From: an uncultured Gammaproteobacteria bacterium
GTDB taxonomy: Bacteria; Patescibacteriota; Microgenomatia; UBA10105; UBA927
DNA length: 62,391 nucleotides
Reading direction: 5' to 3'
Assembly: GCA_964609895.1 (NCBI GenBank)
Contig: CAZSTG010000006.1
Location: 423 to 62,813 of the forward strand
The notes below the pieces were generated by a model, which did not search any database, was not told the DNA's origin, and was given only the letters and a program-made list of their open reading frames with translations. The first letter of the stretch is position 1, and each line of letters opens with the position of its first letter. The translations under genes were made by a program, and so were the position numbers. Of this stretch, positions 3,982 to 60,100 are shown in pieces.

Positions 3982-6417
3982 ATGTGCGAAACACCAGTTG
4001 GTGTTGTGTTGTCTGAACTTTCTTTACGGAAGAACTATCCATTGGAAGTAAAACACCTTCCTAGCGCACTTGTTGGCATTCGTCCACTGCAACCTGACAG
4101 CCAATTTGACAGAATTGGCTTTAATCAACTGGAAACACCATTTGTGGCAAAGGGAATTGAAAATATCACTCCTGAGAAACCGGATACATATGAAGAATTG
4201 AAGAAGTATGCCTCTGGAATGCGTCTGGATTCTGCAAGTGATAGCATGCGTTACACTGTTGTTGATATTACAGGGCAACCGATGTATCCAACTGAGGAAT
4301 ATAAACGTCGATCAACTATGGTGGACACGAAGGGGAATGTACGACAGGCAATAGTCACTCCTGAAAGTCATAAACCGTGGGAAGGTGTGCCTGTTGGAAA
4401 TGTTATTGTGTTCCGAGATGAATCAGACAGAGTACGACAACTTGGATTTGATCCTGATGCACTTCGTGATCCAACACGCCCAGCGGGTCCTGATAATCCG
4501 CCGAAGAAGTTGTTTCTTGAACTGAGTTATTATCATATCGATAAACTGTATCAGCAATTTCCTCACTTACAAAAATTAACGAGCGCCGACGGGAAACAGG
4601 CGCTTACTGCATTTGAAAGTGGCATTTATACTGCAATTGTTGACGTTGTTGAGAAAGCAAAGGCTGTCGGATATGATCCAAAAGATATTGTGCTGACCGG
4701 ATATACCAATACAGATAATGAACGGTCAAAACAAGTATTGAAAACGTTCGGTTTTAAAGATTACGGTCTCGTTCAAAAATATTCAGAAGATTACCCCTTT
4801 CCACGCGATAGTTTTGTCATGACAGGAGACAGTTGGCATGATTTTCAGCACGTATATGAATCTATTCTTGTACCGAATACAGAAAAAAACGCTGTGCCAC
4901 CTCACCTTATGGTAAAGACGGTACATGAATCACCGCTTAGGATTCCCTTGGAGGCATTGCAACCACAGGGAATCGATAATACGCCGCCGGAGCAATATGT
5001 TTGCAAGCCATACGTTGAAACAGCAGAAACAATAAAATGGAATAAAGATCGGATTACACACGCGACGGAAGCATATACGAAATATGGTGTGTTGACAGAA
5101 GAGACGACTCAGGCAATCTATACGAATATTTTAAAAATAAAGCCTGGTGAGCGAGGGGTGATTGTTGCTGATAGCGCAACAGATCCAGCTGCCGTTGCTG
5201 TATTAATGCATGAAGCAGACGCGTTAGGAGCATCACTTGATATATTTGTACTTCGTGATAAGGCAGAAGATGATCTTGTTTCTGTTACCGCATTTTTACG
5301 GCAGTTTGAAAATGGAACAAACATTCATGTTCGACCATATGACATGCTTCAATCAAAAACATCGTATACTCGCGCATTGGATGCGTATTGGAATGGATAC
5401 TATGACTATGGAATAGGATTAATGAATGCCTCCTATGATATACGGATAAAAAAGATTGCACGTATGGCATATCAACAAACACCAATGATTATGATGCCTG
5501 GAGTGACAATTGAAAGTTTGACATCGCCAATGTTTCAAACAGACAGAGAAAAAATGAATGTGCTCGGAAAACACTATCAAACACTCATGAAGGATGCTGA
5601 TCATGTGACTATTCTATGTCCTGAGGATGGAACAGATTTTACGTATTACATTGACAAGAATACTCCATGGTGGATTGAATCTGAGTTGGACTTCAGCTCA
5701 CGGAGAGATCCAGATCTTTCAAACCTTGGTAATCGTCAGATGCCAGTTGATAACTGGGGTGGGGAAGTGTATACCATTTGTAATTTATCTGGCGATCGTA
5801 TGACCCATGGAACATGGAATGTCTATTGGCCAGATGCAGATCCGTATTTTGAGGCATATGCACGGGGAGAGATAACAAAACAAGAGTTCCAAACATTTGT
5901 TTCAGATCGTACTGATCCGATAAAATTGACATTGGATCATGGAAAAATTGTTCAAATTGATGGAGGTAAGCGAGCTGATATTTTGCGAGAGTATTTACAA
6001 AGAAAGAGCGCAGATGACTTTTTAGAAGATGCAAACTTGTATATAACTGAGCCTGGGGCAGGATTAAATTATAACGCTCGTTCTCCCGAGCAACATGGCG
6101 ATGAAATCATCATGACACTTGAAGCAGAAAAAATTGGACATAAGGATCCACATACTGAAGATCCTGATGGCGGGATGATCCATTTTGGCGTGGGAGAGTC
6201 GTTTATTCATCCAAAATTTTCTTCAAATACGCATTTGGATCATATTGTCGCGGTTCCTGAAGGTGCAACATTGTATCAATGCATCATAAAAAATGATGGG
6301 TCTGCACTGCTTCTTTCAGGAATAAATGGGGTGTTTAACTATTATGCTTCTCAATTTATCCCTGCATCAGCTGTTGCATCTACGTTATCGGATTTGCGTG
6401 CAGGGAAGCTTCAATAA
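3982..6417 (+). CDS. 811-aa protein with an unknown N-terminal half and a C-terminal half resembling M29 (aminopeptidase T/PepS) family
   Basis: Long clean ORF. The C-terminal part shows KPGERGVIVADSATDPAAVAVLMHEADALGA, NWGGEVYT, LDHGKIVQIDG, ITEPGAGLNYNA and MIHFGVGES, which follow the M29 motif order. The function call is tentative. Confidence 0.6.
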   Translation: MCETPVGVVLSELSLRKNYPLEVKHLPSALVGIRPLQPDSQFDRIGFNQLETPFVAKGIENITPEKPDTYEELKKYASGMRLDSASDSMRYTVVDITGQPMYPTEEYKRRSTMVDTKGNVRQAIVTPESHKPWEGVPVGNVIVFRDESDRVRQLGFDPDALRDPTRPAGPDNPPKKLFLELSYYHIDKLYQQFPHLQKLTSADGKQALTAFESGIYTAIVDVVEKAKAVGYDPKDIVLTGYTNTDNERSKQVLKTFGFKDYGLVQKYSEDYPFPRDSFVMTGDSWHDFQHVYESILVPNTEKNAVPPHLMVKTVHESPLRIPLEALQPQGIDNTPPEQYVCKPYVETAETIKWNKDRITHATEAYTKYGVLTEETTQAIYTNILKIKPGERGVIVADSATDPAAVAVLMHEADALGASLDIFVLRDKAEDDLVSVTAFLRQFENGTNIHVRPYDMLQSKTSYTRALDAYWNGYYDYGIGLMNASYDIRIKKIARMAYQQTPMIMMPGVTIESLTSPMFQTDREKMNVLGKHYQTLMKDADHVTILCPEDGTDFTYYIDKNTPWWIESELDFSSRRDPDLSNLGNRQMPVDNWGGEVYTICNLSGDRMTHGTWNVYWPDADPYFEAYARGEITKQEFQTFVSDRTDPIKLTLDHGKIVQIDGGKRADILREYLQRKSADDFLEDANLYITEPGAGLNYNARSPEQHGDEIIMTLEAEKIGHKDPHTEDPDGGMIHFGVGESFIHPKFSSNTHLDHIVAVPEGATLYQCIIKNDGSALLLSGINGVFNYYASQFIPASAVASTLSDLRAGKLQ

Positions 6418-6457: not shown

Positions 6458-7762
6458 ATGAAGCAACGTTCCTCATTTGTGTGCCAACAGTGCAGTGCAG
6501 AGTTTCCGCAGTGGTACGGGAAATGCCCGAACTGTGATTCATGGAACTCTCTCGTTGAAACAGTGAAAGAAAGTGAAACCTCTTCCGGAGCATTCCATAA
6601 AAAAGTGATGAGTTCGGTAGCACCCCAAAAATTGTCAGCTGTAAAACACATTGAGAAAAACCGCTTAAAAAGCGGCATCCCAGAATTTGACCGCGTGATG
6701 GGTGGAGGGATTGTTCCCGGATCCGTGACGCTTCTTGCTGGAGACCCCGGGGTAGGGAAATCAACACTCCTTCTTCATGTGCTTGCTCCAATCGGTGGTT
6801 TATATGTTTCCGGTGAAGAATCAAGTGAACAGATAAAACTCAGGGCAAAACGTATGGGAATTGATGGGGAAAATATCATGGTGTTATCTGAAACGGTCTT
6901 AGAGGGCATTACAGAGGCTCTTTCAAAAAACACTTCCGTACCACTTATTATCATTGATTCCATTCAGACAATAGCTTCAAATGAGCTTGATGGTATGGCT
7001 GGATCTGTCGGACAGATCAGATATTGTGCGGAAGAACTGGTCAATTTTGCAAAATCCAAAGGCATCCCCATGCTCATCATCGGACATGTTACGAAAGAAG
7101 GGGAGATTGCAGGACCGAAAGTGTTGGAGCATATGGTGGACACTGTCCTGTACCTTGAAGGAGAACGGTATCAGGATGCAAGAATTCTGCGGACGCTCAA
7201 AAATCGGTTCGGTGCGGTCGAAGAGGTAGGAATTTTCGAAATGAAAGAAAATGGACTAAAGGAGATAGCTAATCCTTCCGAGCTATTCTTGCAAGATCGG
7301 GTAAAGAATGTACCTGGGTCTGTGGTGACCGTTATTTTGGAAGGAACACGGCCACTTCTTGTCGAAATTCAGGCGTTGGTTGTGCCAAGTCAGATCCCAA
7401 TTCCACGGCGTGTCGCCAACGGGTTTGATTATAATAGACTCCAACTTCTCATTGCCATTTTACAGAAACGTTGTGGATTACCACTTGGGACATCAGACGT
7501 GTTTGTGAATGTGAGCGGGGGACTTAAAATAACGGAACGCGCGTGTGATCTGGCGGTTGCCGCCGCAATTATTAGTTCTTATAGGAATGTGCCGCTGGAC
7601 GGAAAAACTGCGCTATTTGGTGAGGTAGGGCTTCTTGGGGAAGTGCGTCACGTGGGACAGGAAGAACGGCGGGAAAAAGAAGCAAAGAGGCTCGGGTTTA
7701 CGACAATACTTGCGAGTAAAACAACGAAGAATCTTGGGCAACTACAGAAAATGCTGCAGTAA
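6458..7762 (+). CDS. radA: DNA repair protein RadA/Sms
   Basis: Has the CQQCSAEFPQWYGKCPNCDSWNS zinc finger, Walker A GDPGVGKST, the KNRFG motif and a Lon-like C-terminal domain. Confidence 0.95.
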   Translation: MKQRSSFVCQQCSAEFPQWYGKCPNCDSWNSLVETVKESETSSGAFHKKVMSSVAPQKLSAVKHIEKNRLKSGIPEFDRVMGGGIVPGSVTLLAGDPGVGKSTLLLHVLAPIGGLYVSGEESSEQIKLRAKRMGIDGENIMVLSETVLEGITEALSKNTSVPLIIIDSIQTIASNELDGMAGSVGQIRYCAEELVNFAKSKGIPMLIIGHVTKEGEIAGPKVLEHMVDTVLYLEGERYQDARILRTLKNRFGAVEEVGIFEMKENGLKEIANPSELFLQDRVKNVPGSVVTVILEGTRPLLVEIQALVVPSQIPIPRRVANGFDYNRLQLLIAILQKRCGLPLGTSDVFVNVSGGLKITERACDLAVAAAIISSYRNVPLDGKTALFGEVGLLGEVRHVGQEERREKEAKRLGFTTILASKTTKNLGQLQKMLQ

Positions 7763-9721: not shown

Positions 9722-9892
9722 ATGTCAGTAAAACTACTGCTCAAGCAGATGGGTTTGGGAGTTGGGGGAGATAAAGCAAAGGCGCGTGTATCTCCTATGG
9801 TTCGTGAGCGCCAATCATTTGAATCTGAGGTGCGGCGACAATTCGTCGAACTGAAGAAAAAGGGAATCAGTATTCCCGTATTTACGTTATAA
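9722..9892 (+). CDS. small basic hypothetical protein (56 aa), below the ORF-track cutoff
   Basis: Translation by eye gives MSVKLLLKQMGLGVGGDKAKARVSPMVRERQSFESEVRRQFVELKKKGISIPVFTL*. It is bracketed by a promoter-like motif and a strong intrinsic terminator. The overlapping minus-strand ORF 9580..9897 looks non-proteinaceous. Confidence 0.4.
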   Translation: MSVKLLLKQMGLGVGGDKAKARVSPMVRERQSFESEVRRQFVELKKKGISIPVFTL

Positions 9893-20720: not shown

Positions 20721-25853
<5,133 letters not shown>

Positions 25854-30155: not shown

Positions 30156-33100
30156 ATGACCACATACATACGCAATCATTCTGTGCGCCACGGGTTTATT
30201 CAGATCATTCCGATGGTGGTGCTTGCAGTGATTGCCGTGACAACATTTATTACCATTGGGAATTTAGAAAAACAACAAGATATCAGGAGTAGAGCAGCCG
30301 GCGGGACATGCACACAGAAAACATCGGCTGGTTCCTGCAGAAATGTGAAGTGTGCGTCCTATTCAGCAAGAAGCGAATGCGGTGCAAGTTGCTGTACGTG
30401 GGTTGCAGATACCAAGGCGCCGACCAAGACTCCGACAAAGACCCCGACCAAGGCACCGACGAAGACGCCGACCAAGACTCCCACAAAGACCCCGACGAAG
30501 GCGCCGACCAAGACTCCGACAAAGACCCCGACCAAGACTCCCACAAAGACCCCGACGAAGACGCCGACCAGAACGCCAACAATGTCCGCAGCATGTGCAG
30601 GTCTGAACCAGTCCTGTGCGAACAAAAGTTGTTGTTCCCCGAATGCCTGCGCAACATCCCCATATGGAAAATATTGTGTGGCACCCAAAAAAACTCCGGA
30701 TTGCACGAGCGGGCAGACAAAATGCCAGACCGAAGGATCTGTTTCCTATCAGTATACCTGTGATGCCGCTGCGGGAATCTTCGATTACGGTTCAAGAAAA
30801 CGGTGTACCAACGGTTGTAGTGGTACAAAATGCGCTGCGGAGACAACAGTGACCTGTATAGCGGGAAAAGTGCAGTGCAATCCGACACGGGTCAATGAAC
30901 TGCAGACCTGTATTAAACGAAGTGACGGCTCGTATACATGGATGACGACTTCATGCCCGAACGGATGCAAAAATGCTGCGTGTGTGACAACGACAGCAGC
31001 TACGTGTACTGCAAATGAAGATTCTACGCTGACTGCACGCGAATGTACAACTCGGGGAAGAACATATAGGACTTTACCCGACGGGAAAATCTGTTGTATG
31101 AGGGTGCCGACCAAAACACCGACAAAGACCTCGACCAAGACGCCAACAAAAAAACCGACAACAGCACAAAAATCTACAGGAGCTGTCAGTCCGAAACCAA
31201 CTGTCACGTCAAAAACAACAACGCCCGTACAATCAAACGGATCACTCGCTATCGGAGACACCTGTGTGACAGGATTTTTGGGCATAGGAAACACGTGTAA
31301 AAAATGTCCAAACGGCGTGTATCATGTTGTCGGAAGGTCAGGAGCGGGAGGGACACTTGTCTGCGGACCCGCTCCGACAGTAACCGGTACACCAAAAACC
31401 AGTCCGACGAAAAGCACTACAGCAAACGTGTCGTCTTCAACGACACCTTCTCCATTTATTGGGATCGGAGCAGGTGTTCCTGTCCTTCTTCCAACAGGAA
31501 CAGAATTCGGTTTTGGTGTGAATGTCGGTGCTCCAAAAACCTGTTCGCTTTTCAAGCCATGCGGGAAAGATGCAAGCGGCACAAAACTACATTGTGAAAA
31601 AGGTATATGTATTGTGCCGACGGCATCTCCGACAAAAGCACCGAACACAGCACCGACTCCGGCGTCGTCGAAAGCTTTATCTGTCGGTGACACCTGTACG
31701 AAAGGATTTTTAGGGATAGGGAATACCTGTAAAAATTGTCCAAACGGCACATATTACGTTTCCCAACGTTCTGGATCAGGGGGAACGCTCAAATGCGGTT
31801 CTGTTTCCACAACTCCTGTTATTTCGTCCACCGTGGCACCAACACGATCTTCGGTTACTCCAAGTCCGACTATTCTTATTGATCAGCCGACATACAGAAC
31901 ATGTGTAGCGGAATGCAATACCACATATAAGACGGAGAATACTTCTGAAGAAAAGACAGCGTGTATAGACAGCTGTAAAACACTGCAGTCTACAGCGGAT
32001 GCATCAGGAGCATCCGGTGCATCCGGCAGTACAGGAGCATCCGGTGCCACAGGACCAAAACCGTCCATTACTCCCATTCCCATTCCAACGCCGCCCAACT
32101 TTACCGGCGGAAATTTGATGTGCAGTGCGGGAGGCGGTACCACCGCAAAAGCAGGATCGTTTACTTTTGATGCGGGAGCAATTTATAAATGCGACGGCAC
32201 AACGGGAAAATGGTTTAATGTGAGTAAAATCGGCTGGGGACCGGAAGATATTCCGGAAGAAGAACGGCCGGCATGGCTTGTTCCGGGAAGTGCTGAATGG
32301 AATTCTTATACGACGATTGCGGTGACAGCGCCATCCATATATACAACAGAAGCAAAAAATTCCTGCTCCGTCAACACGACAGACGGAACAATTGCCTACA
32401 AAGACGGTTCCGTTGCCATCGGCCCGTATCATTCAGGAAGTACGACAAAAAACAGGTATCGCTGCGAGGATGGGAGATGGAATGAGTGCGAAACATGTCT
32501 TCTGACGGTAGAACCTGTGTATATGGCGAGTGATCCGGAATATATCAAAGAAAAAGAGGAACACGCAGCCACCGTTTCTGATGCCTATACCGCGTATGCT
32601 ACCGCATTGGCTGCGTGTACGTCGGCTGATGTGGCAACATGCGAGGCGGAAGCGCGGGCAAAAATCCAGTCATACGGCGCAGAATACATTCAAGAGGTAC
32701 AACAGCAGTATGTGCAGCAGGCGCAGATTCAAAACGTCTACTATCCCGCAATAGAAGCATATGCAACGTGTCTTGCAACATCCGGAAACACCACGGATAC
32801 CTGTGCGGCAGAACGGAGGGCTGCAAACGTAACCTATACGACCATAGGACTGGGCGGTGAATATTATTCCCAAGTGAATGCGAGCTTCGGGAGTGCTGTC
32901 TATAATTCATTTTTGAATGAGTATATCAACATGAATTCTCGCGCGGATACTTGTGCGGAAAACAATAACGCGGTGGATTTTGGCGACGGAACGACGTGCG
33001 AAGATAATACCAAAGCACTGGCGGCACTGAAAAATGATCCGCTGTTTCTTTATGTTGAGGCACAGTCCAACTCATGGTGTCAACAACCGCCGCAGAAATA

Positions 33101-42100: not shown

Positions 42101-45100
42101 GTTCAGCAGGGTTACGGCGGGCAAAACTCTGGATGTGACGACAGACGCAGGGAAAAACGCAGCGCAGGCAATTATTGATTATGAGACTGCAGCCAAGAAT
42201 GCATATACAAATGCTACACCTGCGGAAAAGGAAGCGATAAAAGATATTGCGACACTCGAAGCAATACCTGCTGTTGCAGCAGCACGGAATGCGGCATATA
42301 CCGCATTGTTGACATATAAAACATCTTCCGGCGTGCTGTTTGATACACTGACCGTCTTTGATGCGCTTATCCGGCCAACCATCCAGACTCTTCTCCGTAC
42401 GGCTGCGCCGGCACCGAATACAACCAATGCTAATAACACAGGCACGGTTGTTCCGGCAACACAACCGACGCAATCCACACAACCGACAAATCGATGGAAA
42501 AATTTTGTGTCTGCGGAAAAGAGAGTAGCGGATGCCATATATACGTTCGTCAACAAGATACCTGTCATTCGTTCCATGGCCAATGTTTTACCAGTGGTCT
42601 CGCAGGAAAAACTAGCGGGTAAAAAATTACTTGGCTCTCTTCTTTCCCAAAGCTGGCAGACAGCCAAGTATATGATAAGCCGTGCGCTGTTCCCTCCATT
42701 TTTGGTGTATGATGCCATACGGATTCAACACTTTATTACTGCACATCCCGATCAGCTTGGAAAAGTTGCCTTGGCAAGTATCCCGGTTGTCATTGGTGTA
42801 ATTGCCAGTTTGCTTATTGCAGGCCTTACTCTCGGTGTGCCGATTCTGGCAGCATTTACACCGTTTATTGGCATGTTCTACCAACCATTCTTTTTTGCAC
42901 TCGGCATTTCCATTGGATTTAACCTTGTAACATTTCCATTGTTTTTCAATGTGTTTTTTGGTCTGACCAACTTTATTCCAAAGATTTTCAAGCAACCGAC
43001 GATGCAAACTATCATTGCACAACAAGATGCGTTGTCAAACGCAGCAGAACGAAAGAACGCGTCAACTGTTTTGTCTGTTCTCCGCGCAGCGAGAGACGAA
43101 GCAAAGAGTGCATATATAGCGGCGCTCAACAATACACATACAACCTCCGTTGAACGGAATGACTTGAAAGCCACGTATGAACAAGCAGAACATGCTTTCC
43201 GGACGGGCATGGCGAAAGAATCGATACCTGTTGTGATATCCACGATTGATGCTGTGACCGCTTCTGTCGACGTGACACGGAGTCAGGATTATCTGGATCT
43301 TCAAAGCGTTCTGATTTCCATGAAATCAATTGCTCAATCATCACAAAGTCAAGAAGATACATTGGCTGATGCCGGTTGGCTGCAGGAAATGATTACCGCA
43401 ATACAGCGAGTCAGGAATGAATATGGGGTATTAGGAAAGAATATGCTGACAGGCAATCTATATAACTATTTCATTTCCCTTGAAACACTCGTTGATGAGT
43501 TAATGAAGGATATGTATGGTATCAAGGTGGATCGCGGTCTTACTGTTCGTCTTGAAAAAGGTGAAACAGTAACATTTGATTCCGGAACAATGCAGGTTGT
43601 CTCCAATCTGAACGCTGCAACGACAAGCAATTCTGTTGTTGTGCAGGTGGTTCATCCGCTCACATTCACTGCGACAATTGATCGTTCTTCTGACTCAGAG
43701 AGTTGGAAAGAAACATTTACCTTGAATCCCGCGGGTGTTATTGTAAAAAACAGTACCGGAACAATCGTTGAGGAAAATCTGCACATTGATACGCAGCTTC
43801 CTGATACGGATATTGATGACACTCAACCGATTTTGGAAGTGATCAACACCATGCCGGATGTCATCTCCCGCGATATCTTGAACAATCCGCAATATGAACA
43901 GGTGATGAAAGACGTTATCCAATACGCAAAAGCACATCCAGAACAGGAATTATGGTCGCTTATCTATAAAGCGTTTTATTCCAAGGGGGAGGTATCAACG
44001 GAAACAGGGTATTTTTACGCAGGGCTGTCCGTTGAAGAGCTGCAGAAGTTGCATACCTACAACCGGAACATTGTCGGGAATGTGCCGCTCGTGAGAGGGT
44101 GGAGGATAGAAGATTTCTTCGGCGGCATCCGTACGGTGGAGAGCGATCCAAATCAGGGGCCGTCGCACGTTGGCCGTCTGTATTTGAATACGAATTATGA
44201 ATACACCGCACGGGTGTATCGGGCATTTCAAGACAAACTTGTGCTTGCAGGAATACCCGTGACCATCAAGATGATTGATGTATTAAGTGATAGTGCTGTA
44301 CAGATTGATCTGAAAAAAGCAGAACGTCCGGATAAAATGGTGCTGTATTTTGCGGCAAAGGATCAGGAAACAGTCCTGCGTATTTTAGATGAAGTCTATC
44401 AAGAGTCTGCAGCATACAACAAAGATATTCAATTAGTGCTTCCGACGATGCGTCACAATCGTGCATTCCATGTGGGCGTACCAAAACTGGCCGCAAACCT
44501 GTATACGCCAACGGCGGAACTGATGGACGGCATTTCCTTTGTCCAGAACCGTGCGTCCGTTTCCAGTTACGGCATGATGATCAGCGATGTGCTTGAGGTT
44601 ATGTCTAATGAGGGGATTGATATAACAAACCCCGCTGTTGTCCAGCAAAACATCCCTGCATATCTGTCTCGGTATCACAGGGATTCCAAATACCCGTTCG
44701 TCACAACAGAAGGAGCAACCCGTTTTGCTCCGCTCATGCAGAGAACGACGGAAAAAAGCGTACGGGTTGTCCGCCGTCCGAAGGCAAAAGACGATGCGGC
44801 AAAGGCATTTGCACAGCAGGCAGCTGCCGCGGAGCAGGCGTTTGCCGAGGTGTTGCAGTCGGTACGAGGCGGAAATGCATTTTTGCTTCCTGAGGCACTG
44901 CAGAATGCCTCAGAAGAAGTATGGAAGACGCTGCTTCTGGGGCGTGCTGTTAATGCGCTGATCGGAGATACGATTACGGCGCTTCAGGAGACAAATAACT
45001 TGGTCTGGCTCAAGGCAGTCAGTAAAACATTGCATCCTGTATCTGCCATGATGAAGTCGTTTTCCGAAACCAACGCAATTCTGGATGCAATGAAGACGCG

Positions 45101-48100: not shown

Positions 48101-51100
48101 GAAATGGGAAGCAAAGAAAACACTTATGGAGCAGGGAAACACACTGGGAGAAAAAATCCATGGAGTGCTGGAAGCATTCGGAAACAGGCAGGAATGGAGG
48201 ATATTGGCAGACAACACAGCAGATAGGCAGGCATGGAACACGCTCCGCGAGGCAACAGATGCTGTTGTTGCCGCATTAACCAGTCTGCAGCAGGAGGCAA
48301 ACAATGCAAAGCTGGACGATCTGAGTACCTTTATCAGTGAATCCATCGCAAAACTCCGCGCCTTTTCCGATCAGTCAACACACGAATCGGAACAACAGGA
48401 AGCGATTAATACAGGTGTCGGTGTAGTTGCGCGGCTGTGGATGGCAATTGATGAGAGAGTTGCATGGTATGCACAGGAAGCAGTGCGAGCGGAGAATGAA
48501 GTTATATTATATCGGGAATTACTGAAAGACGATGCGGGTGAAAAGAATACAGCAGATACAGAACGCCGTTCGGAGTTCCAGAAACTGGCGGAGAGCGCGA
48601 AGCTTAAAGCATTGGAAGCGGGAGTTGCGGCATACACTGCTGAGCAGGGCATCAAAACACTTCAGACTATACAGAATGTTATCAAAGCATATCTTGAAAC
48701 GAGCATTCCTATTGATGAAGTAAATGAACAACTGCGGAATACCGTGATAGAGGAACAGACACAGAAACTTCTCCCGGCGGTACTGAGCAGTATCGCTTCA
48801 CTGCAAAAGACGAATATCAACGGTATTGATGTTGCTGTTTTTCAGGCAACGACTTTGTCAGAGCTTGTGGAAGCCGAAAGACAGCTTACAGAAGCAAAAA
48901 CTGTTGTCGCAGCACTCAATCTGACGTCGCTTGATGAGCTTCTTGCCATAGTGGAAGACGATGTGGAAACACAAAAAGCGGCAATTGAAGAAATTAGGGT
49001 GAAAAAAGAACTTGCCGCGGCGCAGGAAGAGTTGGAAACTGCATTAAAACAGCTTATTTCTCAGGGAGAAGAGGGGGATCAGACGACGGTACTTGAAGAT
49101 GTGTCCGGCGTTGTAAAAAGTATCGCACCCGTTGTTTCCGCGGTAACAGATAACGCAATTACGACCATCACACATCTTGTTGAAGATGGCATTGTTGAGA
49201 CACCAGCGGTTAAAGCGAAAAAAACAAAACGAGCTGATGCAGTGAACAAAATAAAAACAACACCGGTCGTTGTTGCTACTGCGCCAAGTGTAGAACAAAT
49301 AGCGGCAGCGCAAACAGCGCTTGGGGCTTTGTTGCCGCTGAGGGAGCAAATAAATGCCATAGCAAATCGTATTTCCAATATTTCCGTGACAGAAATGCAG
49401 GATGTATTTTTTGAGCTTACAGCAGCAATACAAGCCGCAGATCAGGCAGATATGCCGAGTGAAGAAAAACAAAAACTGTTCCCTTCGTTTGATTTGATCC
49501 GGAATGAGATAGCGGCAATACAGGATCGACTGACAACGTTGGAACAGGAACAGCAGACGATTTTGTATGAAATGAATGATGCAGATTATACGTTATTTGC
49601 TTCTTCTCTAGTAAGTATCCTTCGTCAGTTGGATGTTGTTGAAGCACAGCGGCAGGAATTGGCAATCACAACGCCGAGTGTTGCACCGGTTGTTCCTATA
49701 CCGCAAATCGCAAGTCCGCTTCTGACAGCGCCTGATGCATCAGTGAAAACTGCTGACGAGCAGCGTGCGGAGGCGCAACAGATAGCTGACGCAGCAGCAA
49801 AACAACAAGCGGATACTGCCGCCGCACGGGCGAATGAAATTGCACAAAAAGTACAGCAAATTGCGGATGTTGAACGGCAGCAGGCAGAAACTGCTGCGCG
49901 GCAGTATCAGGATGCACTGACGACCACCCGAGAAACACAGGAAACAGCAGCGGCAAGATCAGAGGAAGAAAAGGATGCGCAGGCTGCGCGCGCTCAAGCA
50001 TTACAAGAAGAACAAAATATACCTGCGGTTATACAATTGTTGCCTGCTTGGAGCAGGTCAACGGCTGTAGCTGCGCAAAAATTGGCAGACACTATCGGAA
50101 CTGCGGTTGCAGCCCGTCAGCAGAACAATACGATGATTTCCGATATTACGGCGGGGAAATGGACAAAAGCATTGCAGACTCTGCTTCCAAAACTGACTCC
50201 TGCAACCGATGCATATACGAAAGCGCAGGAACTCCTTACGACGATTGCAGACATCCAGAAACTGCAACAGGAAGCGGCAAAGAAAAAAGAAAATGTGGAT
50301 ACACTTAGTGTTACAGGCTTACCACAGCAATTAGCAAAAAGTGCTGACTACCTTGCAGCTGATCAAGCGGTGCGGAAATATGGGATTGAGGAAGCTATGC
50401 GACGGGCATTGCTTCCAAAAACACATCCGGACGCTCTTTCAATTAACATGGGGGGCATTATGCAGATGTATGGGATTCAAACCATTGAAGAACAATTCCA
50501 GAATGCGATTAAACAAATTCCAGAAGCAGATGCACAATATGGCGGACCGTTTGAAATAGTATGGGATCAACTTTCCCAGTCTCCAGACGCGCTCCAGTTA
50601 AAGTTGGGCAACGGGACGATCATCAAGCCTTTGGCATATGGGGGAAACCGTGTTGTTTTTGAGCTTCCTAATGGATACATCATCAAAATTGAGGCACTGC
50701 GTCTCATAAATGGATTTTCAATGGTACAACAATGGAAGAGCTTTCCAACGAGCGCTGAAGCCCGCGTCTCTTACTATCGACCTCAATATCAGGATGATAC
50801 ACGTGTATATGCAAATAATGTTACCAATAATGCCTCAGAAATCGCATTCTATTACTCCCTTTCAGAGGAAGATCGGATTCGGTATGCAAAGCCACATGCA
50901 TTTGGCGGTACAGAAGGACAAAATCATTTCCAATACGTTATTTACAAAAAAGCGGATTTTCCATGGAAAAATGGAAACAACGAAGGCGCATTTGATTTCG
51001 TGAATTCACCAGATCAAGCAGTTTTCAATCAGGTAGGACAGGATCCATTCGTTTGGTTATCTACCGTATATAGACAAACCGGTGCGCCGGATATCCATAC

Positions 51101-54100
51101 GGGAAACGTCGGCGTGATCGATGGTCAACCGCAGATGTTGGATTTTCTGGATTGGTCATTGGCCAACTGGTATCTCTTCAGTAATGTGGATACAGCTGTA
51201 ATGGATCAGCTCCGGCAAGCTGACTCTTTTGCATTTGTTCCGGAAAGCAACCAATCGCTCGTGCTATATACAAAGGACGGGGTGTCGTATTTGACGACGT
51301 TGAAAAAGGATGGCGTTATTGTTGTGAATGAACAACCGCAAGCGAATCCAATGGTATTGTCAAAAACGGATAATCCTGAAATTTTTGTCGCACCAGGTGT
51401 GCGGTATTTCTATACGCAAGGGGCGTTCGTGAGAGCCAAGCAAACGGGTTATTTCTTCAAAGATTTAACGGAACATGACTATGTATATAAAAATAGCGAT
51501 TCCATTGTTTTGTCTGACGGGGAAATTGTGCGTGTTTTTATGGATCGTTTTGGTCAGGTTCAGGAGTTGTCGTTGCAAGAAGGGGATCCTGCTGCCATAT
51601 GGCGGTTGTCTAATTGGAAAATCCCTCTTGCTGACGGCAGGTATTTGTTGCGCATTTCATCTTTTGAATACATATTTGATCCAACAATGAATACAATAGC
51701 TCGTGTTCCCCTTACAGATACTGCGCAGGAATTTTTGGTGAAGAATGGGAAAGAGCGAATTATTTTCAGTGATGGATTTCGGGGAGTGGTGGATGCAACT
51801 CCGATGCCTGTTTCATCCACATTGGGAGGGAATGTATATAAAGTGCTCGATAATCAGGAAAATACCACCTATGTATTTATTTCCGATGATGCTCAACATG
51901 TAGAGCATCTATACACAGGCATTCAGTATGTTGCCGGTACCGAAAAAAATAAAACAATTCTTACAGTGCAAAACAATGAACTTGTCATAGTGCAACCATA
52001 TAACACGAAAGAAGGCATGGTGCTTGAGACAGGGCCACAATACTGGGTGCTGTATAGTCTAGACAAGGTAGCCCTGTTTACTTCGTTATTTTCCAGTTCC
52101 CCTATATATAGTCCTGCGTTGTTTCATTTAACGAACGGCGAAGCGTTGGTTATCACTGATCAAAAGGCTGTTCAGGGAACATTAACGTATGAGTCCGATA
52201 AATTGTATATTATAAAAACTGAAACAGATACGCTGCAATTCATTGCAGATGCAATTTGGTATACGGTAAATGGGAAACAATTTCAGGACGGGGAAATTAT
52301 TACGGTTCATCCAGGTGATTTTATTGAAAATCGCAGAGATGCATCCAACCCGATAGGATATGTACAAGCTGATGGAACAGTAGCAAAAACAACACCATCT
52401 GCTGCGGAAACGGAATCAACAAACAACACGGAACCTGCAGGTGTTGCTTCTCCGAATGAATCTATGCCAGAAACCCTTCGTCAACCATTGGATATTCAGC
52501 AGACAATTGCCGTCGTTCAGGCAGTTGTCAATGAATACAAAACAGCACATAAGGCGATTCCAGACCTCATCGCAGCAAGAAAAATCAATGAACTTGGGAT
52601 CATTTTGGCAAAACTGCATCCTGCAGGAGAGGTGGCGACAAGTATTGGTGACCTTATTACGACGATTCAGTCTATGCAGGAGCAAACAAAACGTATTGGG
52701 GGGATTATCGCCAAAGTCGATGAGGGATTGCAATATACATCCATTACAGATCCGACACATCCTGTGACAATTCCTTCCGGACAATTCCTTATTGTTCCCG
52801 TGGGGAAAACACAGAAGATTCTGTATAACAATTTTGGTTCACTTACGGAACCAGAATTTTATATAGGTGACGAAGGTGTCCTTTTTTGGTCCGGTTATGA
52901 GTATAAGTTCGTCGCTCAGGACAAAATGCAACTCAATGCTCCTTTTGAAGCAACTGCATTGTCGACACTATCAACGATTTTACATCTTACAGGAAAACGT
53001 AATTCCGTTTTGTTGCCCATCAACAATGGTTATGTCACAGATAAAGCAACGATGACATATGAAGATATAGTGCGGAATATACAATTATATAAAATTTCTG
53101 ACGGGGAATTATGGATTGATGGCGAGGGGATACAAGTTTTACACAATACCACAATGCAAGCGATACACGGGTTGACGTTGGTTGAGGCAGATGACTTGGT
53201 TTCAATTATTGGAAGTTTGGATTCAGGAGTGATTCAACAAGACGGGACGATCGTGTGGAAGACCAGTTCAAAACCAACAAGTCCGACGTCTTCACAAGCA
53301 CCACAAAGTTCATCTGAGACAAATCAGTCGGTTACCCCCGCGGTCACAGATGTAGTTGTGACCGAAGTGACATTGACAACCGTTGATGTACGACGAGGTG
53401 AAATATTTAAACAAGTAGCGCCGCTTACCACAATCACACAGGCGCAGGCGGATACATGGGTTACTGAACTGCAGAATTTGCAAAAATCCGTTCCCGAAAC
53501 AAATATTCTATATACGCGGCTGCAGGAAGTTATTGATTTCATCGGTAAAAAACCGATAGCGGTAGAACAGAAAAAAGAACCGGTTGTCGAGGTACAGCAG
53601 GAAACGCCGGAACAACAACTTGATAAAGCGGTTGCCAATCTTAAAGAGGTTGTTGATAACGGCGGATCGTTCATGAATACCATACGGGCGATAAACAACA
53701 CATTTGATGCTGCTCTGCATGTTACTGATCCGCAGGGAATTGGGGATCGGGTGTTTGCTATTATTCAAGGTTTATCAAAAGACAGTCTTGAGTTCTTGCA
53801 ACATAGTTTACAGGGGCGGTATTTGGAATTGAATGTTCCGAAGATGATCGATCGTATTAAGGAACTTCTGTCTCAACCGGCATCTGAACCGTCACCGGTC
53901 ACAACAGAAGAACAACGTCTATCGGTGGTGGATGTAGTGAGTTCACACATCAAAACTGTTCCCGCTGTTGTCAGGACTGCGGATATTCAAGATTGGATCC
54001 CTGTATACACCACATTATCGTCTATTTTGGATGGAGTAAAGCAATATTCGAAGAATTTTGATGTATATCATCTGGATCAATTTGATCTGCATGCAAATAC

Positions 54101-57100
54101 AGTTGGTAAAGAGAAAACACCGCAAAATCAAACAGTATTTTTTGAGAAAAACAAGGAACAGCTTTTGCAGCTTCTGAAGGAACAGGGGATTACGCGGCCG
54201 GAAGTAGGAAAACCGATAGACGGGATAACGCAAGAGGAGTTTGATACGGTGTTTTTCCCAGCGTTTGCAGAAAGCGTGTATCAGGTGTTGCAGCCGGCAT
54301 GGATGAACTGGTCCTTACGAGCGGTACAGAAAGAAACGATTGCACATCCGGAAAACTATATTGTGTCAGGTAATCCATATGCATATATCTCAAATCTGTT
54401 GAAATCCCGATATGCATGGGAACAACCGCCGCGAAATCAGATAAACAATGTCGTTATTTTTACCATTGAACAAGGAATTTGGCCGGCAAGCGATACGATC
54501 GGCCAGTCGCTTGAAACGGAGCCGCTTAAAGAGCGTATTCGAAAAAATGTTGAAGAAGATGGCTACACACTCCTTCGGTATCTTGGAGATGGTACAGATG
54601 GCTATGTATATCTGATGAAAAAAGGATCTCTCCTCTACGCTTTGAAAGTATTTAAGAAAAATGCTGGTGCTCAATATGAATCATCAGTATATAAACGATT
54701 GGTAGAAGCAGAAAAAAGTGGAGTATTGGGAAATGCAGATGAAACGTATCTTACGGAACTCCGTGCGGATACAGCAAATAATTACGCCATTATGCCGTTT
54801 GTGCCCAGTGATGCTGATGGGTTGAAAGACTTCTTTACTGTTGGAGAAATAGTAAAAATATCCCATCTTTCATACCTGTACGCACAGGAAAATCTGCTTT
54901 GGATGGACACAAAAAATGAAAATTATCGTTTCGGTCCGGCAGATGATTTACATATCATTGATTATGGTGGATTCAAATCATTTTCCGAAGCTACACAGCA
55001 AGACAAAGACGCGGAACGGGGATCATGGTTGACGTTTGTGGAGAAAAGTATCCGACAGGATATTCCCGAAAGTGATCGGCAGGTATATGACGCCTTATGG
55101 AAACAGGCGCTCAGTATGGGCACTGATGCCTCCGTGTTATCTAAAGCTGAGTTTGCAGATTCATTGACGAGCCCAATCTTCTCTAAATTACCGAAAGTTG
55201 TTCAGGTATTGCTGCTTCGGCAAGCAGGACTACTCAATGCTCCATTCGAGTGGTTTTCCAGAGACGGGTACAAAGACCGGCTTTTGGATATGCTGACGAT
55301 TGCAAAAGAACAGGGAGTTCCTCAATCGCAAATCCCGACGGCACTTCAAGGTCAATACACCGAAGATCTCAGTAAACGGTTGCCAAGTGATGACGTCATC
55401 ACACAGGCAGTGAAAAATTTTACAACTTCACTGCCCTCTATAACAGATCTACGGCAAAAACAGGCGGTGCTTGCACCGGTATTTACTGCAGTAATGTATG
55501 CACTCAATGTGGAAACAGAGAGCGGAAGAGGTTTATATTTTGCGCTACAACATAAACAACCGATGTTGCAACCGATTGTGCTAACGGATTACTCAGAAGC
55601 ATCAATGCAAGATATTGTTCAAAAAACAACCCCATATAGTTACTTAGGAAGGGAAACAGATCCTGCAAAACGGGAAGCATTTTTCTATGTAATTCAGTCC
55701 CTTGTTCAGCAGCTTGCCGCGATATATCCGCTACCGAACGGGAAAAATGACTTAACGCAGGATATCGGGTATATTCCTTGGATCTCTCATCTGTTGCTGA
55801 TCAGTGACGGTCTTCAGCCTAAATATTTTGGCATTGATGGTACAAGAATAACTACGGATGATATAAATAAAATAAGTTTGCAGACTGATACATCGATTGT
55901 GACGATGAATGCGGTGATTCAGGCAATGAATCCGTCGATTACTGCATGGGTGACTAAAATTCTGAGTCAATTTGCAAAACCGTCATATAGTGAGATTGAG
56001 CAAGTTGTGCAGCCGCTTGTTGATGAAATAATCGCAGCAAAAGGCTGGAAAATTCCTGCAGATCGTAGGTTGTTGTATGGGGTTGCTGTGGAACAGGTGA
56101 TGATAAATCTCGCTCAGTCATATAACATACAGGTTCCGTTATCTCCGGCACCCGATGATAAAAAACTCGCTGCACAGCAGTATGTCGAAACGGTGCAGAA
56201 AAAATATGCTGCCGATATCGCGGTGGAATTGTATCCGAAAACGGATGAAAAGACGTTGATAAAAGAACAGCAAGCCGTTTTTATTCAGCTACAAAATGTC
56301 ATTGGTGCGACTGAAGATATCACCCCTGTCGCGCAAGAGATTTTGCGTTTGATGGATAAGAAGCTTTATGATCCCTCTTATAACTCTGTGAGTCGTGGTG
56401 GATTTATCACCGCCTTGTTTAAGCAGATTAACAAGATTCAGGATATTGACCGTTTACGGGTGATTATTGCAGCACTGCAACCGATTGTGACAGAGTGGTC
56501 GGATTTGCCAGAGGTGCGAAATGCATTACAACGGCTTCCTGATATTACTATTCCACCGCAAGCGCCGAAGGAATTGGTTATCGATCAGATCGTTGCTTCA
56601 ATGAAACAATCAAACGTGTCGAATGAGCCAGTTGTTGAGAACCAGCCGGTTGTACAGGAAGTGAAAATGCCTGTTGCAACAGTTGAAGAAGTTGTTGAAA
56701 AACCACTCAAAACCACACTCGCCGAAACAATTACTCTCATGATGGCAAAACGGCTTCCTGCAGTGTGGAAGACGCTGTCGCAGACAAAACAGCAGGAGAT
56801 TGTGAGTGAGTTGCAGCAGATAGCATACGCTGCAATAGCAGATGCAGTGAATCAGTCATACGTGAGGGACATGATTGCAGGATCTCGGTCAAAAGCATTT
56901 GTCACAAACCGGTTCTCAGCCGTTTTTGAGGATTATCTCCAACAGGCATTGGTTGAAACCGGTACTATGACCGGTGAAATTCCGATTTCACTCCGGACAG
57001 ATTTGGCAACACTGGTCATTGATGAAATTACGCCGATGGTATCGGCAACCGTAACTATCCAAAAACCCGTTACGCAGAAGACAACACAACCGAAAACAGA

Positions 57101-60100
57101 AACCTCTTCAAAGAACGACACATTCAAGCAGACTATTGTAGCCCGTGTTCGTGAACAAATCGGCAATACGCTGGCGGCAAGCATCGTTGACCGGAATGAA
57201 GCGTCGCGAGTGTATGCGCTGCTTGATGCGCTTCAGGCAGAAGGAGGGGAGACTGGTGCGTATGTAAAAAAATACAAATCCACGCTTGCAACACAGATAA
57301 TAAGAGAACTGCTTCGGACACTCACGGTGGATCCGGAGGCTGTGCTGACATTTAATGGAACAGTGTATCAAAAACAATCAAAAGGTGCTCTTTCTGTATC
57401 AAATATTGTGTGGCAGCTTGATCCGGAACAAAAGACAATCGTGACAATTCATCACACAGACGGCGTTATTGATCAGGTGAGTATGAAGCCAAATGCCATA
57501 TCGCAAAAAACATTGCTTGCATATATGCGGCCGCTTGACAGCGCAGTGTTTACCACAGCATCCGGTGAAAAAATTGTCATCACCCTGACACGACAAGGAG
57601 GAAAGACCATGGACGGTGCGCTGGAAACGCCTGCACTGTGGCAGCAATACAGCACGTCTTCCACATATACTTCCATTGTCTCCGGTGCCACAGACGATGT
57701 ATCAGTCAATCGCGTGTCAGCAATGGCAATAGAAGTCGGGGATGATGCGGCATCATTGGTTGGTCCTGTCGTCAAAACGGTTGCCAATGCAGCACAAAAC
57801 CTGATCCAGAAAACGCCGCAGACATTCATCGCGGACATCCGCGCCATGCTTCCGCAGGATATTCCTTACGTGGTAAGAAAAGGAATTGCCGATATGCTGC
57901 AGCAGGAAATTGCTGAACAAAAAATTACCACATATGCCGATGCCATGTCTCATGTTGCCGCAGGGACGCTGTCTCCCAGTTCCGAGGCAATCCTCGGAAA
58001 TCTCGGATCGCTTTCTTCTAATGCAAAAGAATGGCATGATGCACTTCGGTTGGTCATCGCCAATATGCCTGAGTCGGCATGGGATCCGAATATCACGGTC
58101 GTGATGAGAAAAACCATGACTGCCATTCTTGCCGGAAAACTGACCGATGCGAAAGAAATCCATGAACTTCTGACACGGGAAGAAACTGCAGAACGAACTG
58201 TCAGGATGGCCACACTGATTCAGGCGATATTCCGTTCGTATGCTTCTGGTGTAAACGGGGTGACGCTTTCTGCAACGATGGCCAAACAAGCAGTGAATGC
58301 ACTGACACAACCTCTGTTGTCATACATCCGTCCATTGATTCAGACAAATGTATTGGATGTTACCGATATGCAGGCACTTACCGCGTTTATGGAATCGCAT
58401 CAGATCACCAGTGCAACCAGTCCCGAAATGATTATGGCGATGCGGGAAGCACAGGTTACCGCCGGCGGGGTGACGCCGTTCGAGTATCCCGCGCCGGTAC
58501 TGCGTCAGCAGGATGTGCATACCATGCTTACTGACGGGATGAACAGTGATATTCAGGCAAGACTCGAACAGGTATTGGCTGCGTATCATCAATCCTATGA
58601 CGGATGGGATAGTATCCAAACCCAAAAAGCGGAGCTGCACGACACCATGCTGCATGCAGTCCTGCAGGCAGCGTTTACCCATTACGACCAAATCTATGAG
58701 AAGAATGCATTGGTGGAACTGAATCCGAAGAAAATCAACAATTACCTTGCTATCTTCGCTGTATTGCAGCCGTTGTTTGAAGATGAATTTGCATCCATGA
58801 TGAACGGTATGCAGCAAGTAGGAACTGCTGTGGTGCAGGTGCAGGGGGAACATCCGGAGATAACAGGAAGAGATAATTTACTGGATGTGTTGCAGCAGCA
58901 ATCGGTATTTAAAACGCAATATACTCTGTTTTCACCGAAAGATATGACGTATATTGCTGAACTGTATATTGACGATGCATTCGTTCAGGCACCGATTACC
59001 ACTCAAGAAGCGGAGAATATGGTACAACGTCTGAAAAACGACGGCACACTGCAGGATGACATCCATTGGGCATTGGAGAATCAACTGAAACAGGCAGCAC
59101 AGGCAGAAAAAACAGCAGAATCGCTGCTTCTAGCAGATGGCTTGGTACAGCAAACAGTCCGTGCAGCGATCCTTTCCACTCTCCAAGAGTCATTGAGCGA
59201 TACTGGTGTTGGAGGAGTATTTCATCCGACGACTAAAAACTATCAAACTATTCAAAGCGTTGCGGATCAGGAAACAACAAAGGCAATGCAAGAACTCCGG
59301 GATCTATTGCAGGGGAATGACAATCAATATACAGGTCTTGTCGGAACTCTTGCGGAAGCAGTCCGGCAGGGGGAAGAAGAAACTCACGCATATGTATCGT
59401 GGAATCAGGTGAAGGAGTTTTTGGATAAACAAAACGTATTGAATCAACAGACTTCGTATTTTTCTTCGAAAAGCCTTCTCTATTTTGCACAAATTCTCTT
59501 TGAACCAAGCACACTGCAGGCAGATCTTGCAACAACCATCACCACCAAGCCGCAGGAACTTCCCAAAAAACTGCAAAAACTGTTTCACACGATCAGCGCA
59601 CAGGATGTTGTTCGACAAGAGGCCAATAAAAATGTAAAAACTGTATTGAAATTTGCGGGTGCATTGAGTGCACTTCTTGTCGGATTTGTGGTAACACATA
59701 TTCCTCTTGTTTTGTCGTTTATCGGTGCAGTATCCGTTGCGTTCCAACAACCGTCTTCTTCTGTTCCTCAAACACCCTCTGCTGTGATGGAGCAATACAA
59801 CCCGACGCAGACAGATACACAGACAGCAACTCAAACGGAGACACAGCCACCATCCACAACCGCAACCAAAGAAAATAATCCGATGTATCAGGCATATCAA
59901 CAAGCTGCTTCTGTTCAGGATTTTCTGTTTCGGCCGTTATTTGAACGGATTGTGAACGAACGGGCGGCGAGGGCTGCGGAAGAAGGGGATTCGTTCTGGT
60001 TCAGAATCACCGGCAAACACGAAGCTGAATTGACGAAAGCTGAAAAAGACGCAGTCATCCAAAATCCGGTGATTTCCATGGTGTTGTTTGTTTCCGACGG

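Follow-up and report, generated by a model that had tools for sequence, protein, structure and literature searches.

Salmonella SteC is a minimal effector kinase that this animal pathogen exports by type III secretion. It is described in part of one report as active without a validated alphaC glutamate (PMC13395416). In another report, a passage on the polyvalent proteins of phages and plasmids describes kinases that have lost the C-terminal subdomain, have retained the active-site residues and are found in very large multidomain proteins (PMC5512222). The proteins of phrog_4301, e.g., Xanthomonas phage XacN1 ORF170, are small phage proteins of approximately 200 to 225 amino acids that are annotated as 'unknown function'. 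In this study, we analyzed a window of 62,391 nucleotides, which is the whole stretch of DNA under study (contig CAZSTG010000006.1 of assembly GCA_964609895.1), from an uncultured bacterium with a small genome. A giant protein encoded in this window contains a kinase-like stretch, designated domain 1, at positions 50598–51185 of the forward strand. The results suggested, with some reservation on our part, that domain 1 is an active, very divergent protein-kinase-like domain of the C-lobe-poor ('minimal') kind. It is probably in the same deep group as the phrog_4301 phage proteins and the SteC-type minimal kinases, within which it would represent a probably new and very small family of the kinase-like superfamily. 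Its fold, as used in this description, is predicted and is not established.

Domain 1 and its single homologue

The stretch 50598–51185 (+) is stop-free for 196 residues, giant residues 6838–7033 (residue numbers here and below are those of the giant open frame), and its reading includes LKLGNGTIIKPLAYGGNRVVFELPNGYIIKIE and, further on, APDIHTGNVGVIDGQPQMLDFLDW. The four motifs listed in an initial annotation of the sequence were all read here in the order that had been given. First, AYGGNRVVFEL (50634–50666, +) is a Gly-rich strand-loop-strand that may form beta1, the G-loop and beta2. Second, YIIKIE contains K6867 (50685–50687, +), the putative ATP-anchoring lysine of beta3. Third, APDIHTGNVGV contains DIHTGN (51090–51107, +), the putative catalytic loop, with D7002 as the candidate base and N7007 as the candidate metal ligand. 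Fourth, MLDFLDW contains DFLDW (51141–51155, +), in which D7019 is the putative metal-binding aspartate equivalent to that of DFG. Short contigs identical to the domain 1 stretch, with 0 other letters and no variants, were found in four further public runs from four studies, which shows that the sequence does not stem from misassembly.

Among 1.84 billion representative proteins, searched exhaustively with phmmer, one homologue was returned at E up to 0.001. This protein, P0003, is 3158 amino acids long and matches through its residues 2698–2962 (E 3.9e-15, 32% identity); it corresponds to a locus of the genome G025, which was also reached independently through searches of whole genomes and of genome contigs. 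The module conserved between the two proteins extends over giant residues 6695–7079 (50169–51323, +) and P0003 residues 2616–2964 (blastp E 3.6e-27). Identity is 30% across 281 residues and 20% outside four conserved blocks. In the pairwise alignment, the residues G, N-R-V, F, I-K, D-x-H-x-G-N-x-G and D-x-L-D-W are invariant, the P0003 counterpart of DFLDW being DYLDW. The two best-conserved blocks, ASEIAFYYSLSEEDR (60% identity) and FGGTEGQNHFQYVIY (73% identity), are not classical kinase motifs. Mapped by spacing only, the first may correspond to alphaC, with E6918 or E6927 as its glutamate, and the second to beta4–beta5 and the hinge; the pair ASEIAFYYSLSEEDR and FGGTEGQNHFQYVIYKKAD occupies 50832–50957 (+).

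The distances between the motifs are close to those of protein kinases. D7002 and N7007 are 5 residues apart and N7007 and D7019 are 12 apart, compared to 5 and 13 in the Hanks kinase encoded by the same genome, and approximately 47 residues separate the catalytic aspartate from the hinge as placed by spacing. In PKA, these distances are approximately 45 from the hinge to the aspartate, 5 from aspartate to asparagine and 13 from asparagine to aspartate. The motifs in their order were also put into a regular expression (Gly pair .. [ILV][ILV]K[ILV] .. D.[HK]..N .. D[FY][GL]). This pattern, which was written after the motifs had been seen and was thus not blind, gave a single match in the giant protein, at residues 6852–7021, and matched none of 2000 composition-preserving shuffles.

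Other collections were searched for further relatives of domain 1. The 102 pattern matches in genome contigs included one relative, the G025 locus itself, and no relative was present among 299 pattern matches in metagenome contigs or 70 in viral contigs. A word-indexed protein search (reach 493–2000 amino acids) scored 8000 candidates with none at E up to 0.01, and its 'near' version gave 5463 candidates with none at E up to 10. A tblastn search against 50,697 phage records returned two records at E 3 for domain 1 and none for P0003. Separately, tblastn matches of the protein at L006 to phage proteins of about 125 amino acids were weak (E 0.2–0.8) and were dropped. Domain 1 was present in two of 61 related genomes, the window's own genome (G000) counted. 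No description of it was found in literature on the SteC structure, on giant genes, CPR (candidate phyla radiation) and kinases, or on polyvalent proteins, which did not amount to a full survey.

A beta-rich region (51190–52600, giant residues ~7035–7500) follows the kinase-like core and contains recurring hairpin-like motifs of the form x-x-D-G-x. This region is partly conserved in P0003 (SDGFRGVVDA compared to SDGFKVAAAA) and has no Pfam match.

Probable kinase kinship and the competing explanations

The initial annotation had assigned the motif order to the protein-kinase-like (PKL) superfamily. Support for this assignment was obtained indirectly, through P0003, phrog_4301, the links of the latter to Hanks kinases, SteC and PglW, and a protein language model, and no direct match was found. 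The P0003 domain matched the phrog_4301 profile over 162 residues (49–210 against positions 38–166 of 225; E 2e-4, 21.9 bits). Domain 1 itself matched over 27 residues (45–71 against positions 37–65; E 0.21, 12.1 bits), with the same start in the profile. The Hanks kinase of the window's own genome, a genuine Pkinase protein by Pfam (E 3.3e-51), was matched as well: profile positions 145–172 align with 29 of its residues, covering the catalytic loop and DFG (E 2.4e-4). At profile position 166, where this kinase has its DYG, the P0003 match comes to its end on the DY of DYLDW. Because this position is shared, the register of the DFG aspartate agrees and, by spacing, so does that of D-x-x-x-x-N. 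The alignment of the key residues with catalytic positions, which had been proposed as a check, is borne out at the level of motifs only: Lys, Asp, Asn and Asp are invariant in P0003 and the DFG register agrees through phrog_4301. Furthermore, proteins matching phrog_4301 at E 4e-28 to 1.5e-6 gave profiles that matched PDB 8jbi, 'Secreted effector kinase SteC', over the G-loop and lysine (E 1.8e-6 and 4e-6), and the XacN1 member weakly matched the kinase region of PglW (E 0.0023).

Comparison of the sequences themselves gave a similar picture. A merged 18-row unsupervised MAFFT alignment (A3) contains domain 1, P0003 and 16 phrog_4301-type proteins; its invariant columns are G, R, K and the DFG-like Asp only, so that K6867 and D7019 are kept in 18 of 18 rows. 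AYGGNRVVFEL aligns with the GSxRVVF of the phrog_4301 members. A sub-profile of the G-loop and lysine had this site as its sole match both in the 10,768-residue giant protein and in P0003 (E ~6e-4 each), and a five-sequence sub-profile of the catalytic loop and DFG found its best place in the giant protein at residues 7008–7019, as expected. By eye, NVGVIDGQPQMLDFL of domain 1 resembles NWGFYDGRPVILDVG of phage Xoo-sp13. We regard homology along the chain from domain 1 through P0003 to phrog_4301 as highly probable and a kinase-like nature of phrog_4301 as hardly less so.

Language-model look-ups in the ESM Atlas pointed in the same direction. Domain 1 and P0003 adjoin the same viral cluster, which is automatically named 'Protein kinase domain-containing protein' (0.96, 185/256 features), and both lie near clusters carrying Phage_T7_kinase (11% of members). 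Domain 1 is also near a cluster in which 80% of members carry Kinase-PolyVal (score 0.95). The 'recognition' values of 2199 and 2084 are under the tool's mark of 2300, which makes these look-ups weak evidence.

Since the lysine, both aspartates and the asparagine are retained, ATP-Mg binding and phosphotransfer would be expected of domain 1. ATP-Mg would lie under the Gly-rich hairpin AYGGNRVVF and be anchored by K6867, while N7007 and D7019 of DFLDW would hold the metal ions. D7002 of D-x-H-x-G-N would act as the base, and the gamma-phosphate would be transferred to a hydroxyl acceptor on a protein or a small molecule. The lysine strand would be followed by an insert of approximately 45 residues, and the chain would leave the kinase core soon after the DFG-like aspartate. 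Our reservation about an active minimal kinase arises because the confidence in each link of the homology chain was discounted for failed fold predictions and for a basis of two sequences.

Several results weigh against this interpretation, beginning with the profile and structure searches that the initial annotation had set as its test. Direct searches of domain 1 returned no kinase: none from Pfam at E up to 10 (no PF00069, APH, ABC1, RIO or Fam20), none from NCBIfam, nothing at all from PADLOC, and none from the PDB, either by sequence (utrophin at E 0.53) or by the profile of A1, the two-sequence alignment of domain 1 and P0003 (antibody chains at E 0.7–1.8; no SteC). The sole Pfam matches, DUF7585 (E 0.013) and DUF5722 (E 0.071), were under the cut-off and neither was common to P0003, and an NCBIfam match to YehD (E 0.013) was taken as chance. 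The Kinase-PolyVal model PF18762 matched nothing in the genome at E up to 10, and a six-frame scan of the genome with phrog_4301 at the same threshold reported the Hanks kinase and not domain 1. In these sequence comparisons, domain 1 matched none of Pfam Pkinase, APH and Kinase-PolyVal, and it is a demonstrable member of no curated family.

Profile and structure comparisons were no more favorable. By hhalign, A1 reached a probability of 0.2% against five Hanks domains and 26–36% against phrog_4301-type alignments, the latter in the N-lobe only; by partner, the values were 26% for A2, 8.6% for three phage members and 35.5% for 28 family members. Local family profiles aligned with significance over just ~20–25 residues of the N-lobe, i.e., the G-loop and lysine stretch, and the catalytic-loop sub-profile missed the expected place in P0003. 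AlphaFold2 models were unusable, with a mean predicted local distance difference test (pLDDT) score of 43.8 for A1 and 43.7 overall for A3. Within the A3 model, the piece comprising strand, G-loop, strand and lysine-bearing strand (strands 21–24, 28–32 and 38–42) reached pLDDT 76–82; A3 includes putative kinase relatives and its model leans towards them. With the poor A1 model as query, Foldseek found nothing at E up to 0.001, and none of the rows listed was a kinase.

The sequence itself also lacks several expected elements. None of the glutamates can be taken with confidence as that of alphaC: the candidates E6918 and E6927 are conserved in P0003 and lie 51–60 residues past the lysine, and the nearer glutamate is not conserved, the Glu of AEAR being Thr in P0003. 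No HRD or APE is present in domain 1, and no activation segment is recognizable past DFLDW. All evidence of conservation comes from two sequences only.

The strongest competing explanation is that domain 1 is not a kinase fold and represents a lineage-specific domain with chance motifs, the match between P0003 and phrog_4301 being spurious or limited to the strand-loop-strand element. All direct searches were negative, AlphaFold2 failed twice, the hhalign probabilities were low, the significant local alignments were confined to some 20–25 N-lobe residues, and the two top-conserved blocks are not classical motifs. However, the P0003 match spans 162 residues at E 2e-4 and ends in register on the DFG-like aspartate, five catalytic-type residues are invariant at 30% identity, the ordered motifs occurred in 0 of 2000 shuffles, and two independent language-model look-ups led to the same kinase-named cluster. 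On balance, we consider this explanation unlikely. Were it correct, domain 1 would be a useful caution: motifs of the kinase type, in the right order, may be kept in a fold that has nothing to do with kinases.

Readings that accept a kinase fold and depart from an active minimal kinase are, even when combined, rather improbable. The first is a small-molecule phosphotransferase of the APH, ChoK or RIO type, or an enzyme of AMPylation or glutamylation, exported as an effector. The initial annotation had leaned this way, with an APH/ABC1/RIO/Fam20 flavor in preference to Hanks and a setting common to secreted effectors. The APH consensus D-l-H-x-G-N is nearer to DIHTGN than is the Hanks D-L-K-P-E-N, and the same giant protein carries a match to the HopA1 effector family, PF17914 (44133–44417, +; giant residues 4683–4777, profile positions 13–98 of 170), at E 6.6e-5 and 23.3 bits, barely above the cut-off of 22.7. 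On the other hand, the APH model (PF01636), run on all six frames of G000 and G025 at E up to 10, matched only the Hanks kinase on contig C2 of G000 and nothing in G025, no APH, ABC1, RIO or Fam20 family was matched in Pfam at E up to 10, and the relatives that can be detected are phage and SteC-type derivatives of protein kinases. Neither the APH-like flavor nor the effector setting was upheld. Hydropathy places domain 1 on the K/R-flanked, cytoplasmic side of the last membrane segment, in a probably cytoplasmic segment between membrane segments. An exported enzyme of this type is therefore a doubtful candidate.

A pseudokinase, i.e., a catalytically dead module of kinase fold for nucleotide binding or scaffolding, would account for the missing alphaC glutamate and activation segment, and the more canonical second kinase-like domain described below could then be the active one; full retention of catalytic residues is not the usual pseudokinase pattern, both members of the family keep the lysine, catalytic aspartate, asparagine and metal-binding aspartate, SteC functions without a validated alphaC glutamate according to part of the report cited above (PMC13395416), and we consider this reading very improbable.

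The giant protein and its relatives

The giant open frame extends from 30087 to 62390 (+) and encodes 10,768 amino acids in the window with no stop, its 3′ end being open at the contig end; on contig C6 it is open for 10,774 amino acids. The genome, G000, comprises 982 kb in 14 contigs and is approximately 98% complete, and the genomes of its relatives range from 0.7 to 1.8 Mb; sizes of this order suggest a CPR/Patescibacteria-like organism. Besides domain 1 and the HopA1-like part, the giant protein contains a second kinase-like domain at 54552–54986 (+; giant residues 8156–8300) with the motifs GDGTDGYVY, YALKVF, MDTKNEN and IDYGG. Its matches are weak and consistent (Pkinase, E 1.1e-3; FTA2, E 1e-3; Akt1 structures, E 3.6e-4; NCBIfam PrkT, E 7.9e-5; PADLOC ST_Kinase, E 7.4e-6), and by sequence it appears more canonical than domain 1, to which it has no similarity by blastp. 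A LytR_cpsA_psr domain (60171–60611, +; E 1.4e-13) follows the last hydrophobic segment, and a weak CHAP match (~61480–61770, +; E 0.071) lies near the open 3′ end. A PHROG scan of the whole giant protein gave one unrelated family at E 8e-4.

Crude Kyte-Doolittle hydropathy, the only basis for topology here, identified three hydrophobic regions: an N-terminal anchor (30195–30251, +; giant residues 37–55), a cluster of 72 residues or about three helices (42762–42977, +; giant residues 4226–4297), and a stretch of 35 residues with a K/R-rich N-flank and a T/Q/P-rich C-flank (59640–59744, +; giant residues 9852–9886). A membrane segment followed by an extracytoplasmic LytR_cpsA_psr domain is the usual layout of LCP proteins. 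Domain 1 lies between the cluster at 4226–4297 and the K/R-flanked segment at 9852–9886, which precedes a LytR_cpsA_psr domain of this extracytoplasmic type, and is therefore predicted to be cytoplasmic. The whole segment 4298–9851, approximately 5,500 residues that include the HopA1 match, domain 1 and the second kinase-like domain, is likely cytoplasmic, which suggests an out-in-out layout for the giant protein. A place in a secreted effector is thus less likely for domain 1 than a role as an enzymatic module that stays inside the cell, within a giant protein spanning the envelope. Part of a preprint on giant genes describes membrane-helix predictions in giant proteins as unreliable (10.1101/2023.11.21.568195). 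Runs of PTKT-type repeats between Cys-rich stretches (~30400–30570 and 31080–31130; giant residues ~105–160 and 330–350) were seen past the N-terminal anchor, and this part looks like an extracellular linker region.

The neighboring genes are ordinary genes of housekeeping or the envelope (S1, RadA-like, Rho, DUF2298, PMT_2 and M23/LysM), and no phage or plasmid hallmarks were seen around the giant protein, which is chromosomal and membrane-spanning. Elsewhere in the window, 20721–25811 (-) encodes a protein of 1696 amino acids with N-terminal DNA-binding motifs of the HTH_17/MerR type, collagen triple-helix repeats (E 7e-54) and Peptidase_S74. Peptidase_S74 is an intramolecular-chaperone domain of the phage tail-fibre or endosialidase type.

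The genome search placed G025 in the same family as the window's genome. Its locus (C3:14000-53999) is colinear with the giant protein, with an N-terminal anchor, a region like giant residues 2630–3531, the kinase-like module, and a transmembrane and LCP-like region, and it is split into at least four consecutive open frames on the same strand, of 1026, 3156, 3158 and more than 3581 amino acids. This split could be a real gene fission or could reflect assembly frameshifts; the second and third frames overlap in different reading frames. The upstream part (residues 2630–3531) was found in five of the 61 related genomes, again with the window's own counted. In G001, which is of the same genus (C5:36000-43374), the frame takes approximately 1,500 residues to pass from the counterpart of residue ~3860 to the counterpart of residue ~10389, where identity is 63%. 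The G001 contig is without the central ~6,500 residues that hold the transmembrane cluster, the HopA1-like part, both kinase-like domains and LCP, and domain 1 was not found anywhere in the G001 genome. In the complete genome G023, a frame of 7186 amino acids has the upstream and LCP-like parts only. The kinase-like module, which G025 has and which the G001 contig and the G023 frame do not, is thus a cassette that varies within a modular family of giant proteins. Few of the relatives have Hanks kinases (four of 41 genomes at E up to 1e-20), and two of the four matches are inside open frames of 2442 and 5378 amino acids (G051:C2 and G022:C16); kinase domains within very large proteins recur in this lineage.

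Domain 1 is not surprising in kind; what sets it apart is how rare it is and that it occurs within a giant protein of the envelope. If it is a working kinase, it would represent a new and extremely rare kinase-like branch with two members among 1.84 billion representative proteins. A further implication would be that minimal kinases of the type found in phages and injected effectors also form part of giant membrane proteins in ultra-small bacteria that probably depend on a host. Such giant proteins are almost wholly unannotated, and domain 1 would offer an expressible handle on their function, with four residues that can be changed by point mutation.

A bolder proposal goes further, and we regard it as a long shot. 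Domain 1 and P0003 would found a new PKL family whose loop reads D-x-H-x-G-N, whose beta3 strand is followed by a large insert and whose chain has no C-lobe past the DFG-like aspartate. The family would be confined to giant proteins that span the envelope of small-genome, CPR-like bacteria, and within these proteins it would be a movable cassette on the cytoplasmic side. Acting with the second, Hanks-like domain, which lies 1,300 residues further downstream, domain 1 would link host contact at the huge extracellular N-terminal part to the extracellular LytR_cpsA_psr/CHAP-like cell-wall part. The giant protein would then be a system for signalling across the membrane or for modifying itself, of a size without precedent.

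Comparison with known kinase-like systems

Compared to the phrog_4301 proteins, domain 1 shares several features. First, both have a G-x-x-R-[VI]-[VA]-F hairpin followed by [VI][VI]K[VI], and both have a short C-lobe. Second, a C-terminal segment of the form N-[WV]-G-x-x-x-G-x-P-x-[IM]-[IL]-D is common to the two, as in the segments of domain 1 (NVGVIDGQPQMLDFL) and Xoo-sp13 (NWGFYDGRPVILDVG) that were compared above. The two also differ: domain 1 has approximately 45 extra residues after the lysine strand and is without the KG-x-AQN-x-x-E that is invariant in phrog_4301, its distance from Asp to Asn is 5, which is the Hanks spacing, whereas that of the phage members is 6, and it lies within a protein exceeding 10,000 amino acids whereas the phage members stand alone.

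The relationship to SteC (PDB 8jbi) is one step further removed, as it runs through phrog_4301-type profiles on the G-loop and lysine, the A1 profile itself being without a SteC match. While SteC leaves its animal pathogen by type III secretion to act as an effector, domain 1 is in a predicted cytoplasmic segment of a protein of an environmental bacterium with a small genome.

Compared to Hanks kinases (PF00069), domain 1 has the same order and a near-identical spacing of the catalytic aspartate, the asparagine (+5) and the DFG-like aspartate (+12 compared to +13). It differs in having His in place of Lys at position +2 of the loop and in having no HRD, no APE and no detectable alphaF–alphaI.

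There is a parallel in architecture to Kinase-PolyVal (PF18762), which likewise consists of a core without the C-terminal subdomain inside a very large multidomain protein. The PF18762 host proteins belong to phages and plasmids, whereas the protein that carries domain 1 is chromosomal and spans the membrane.

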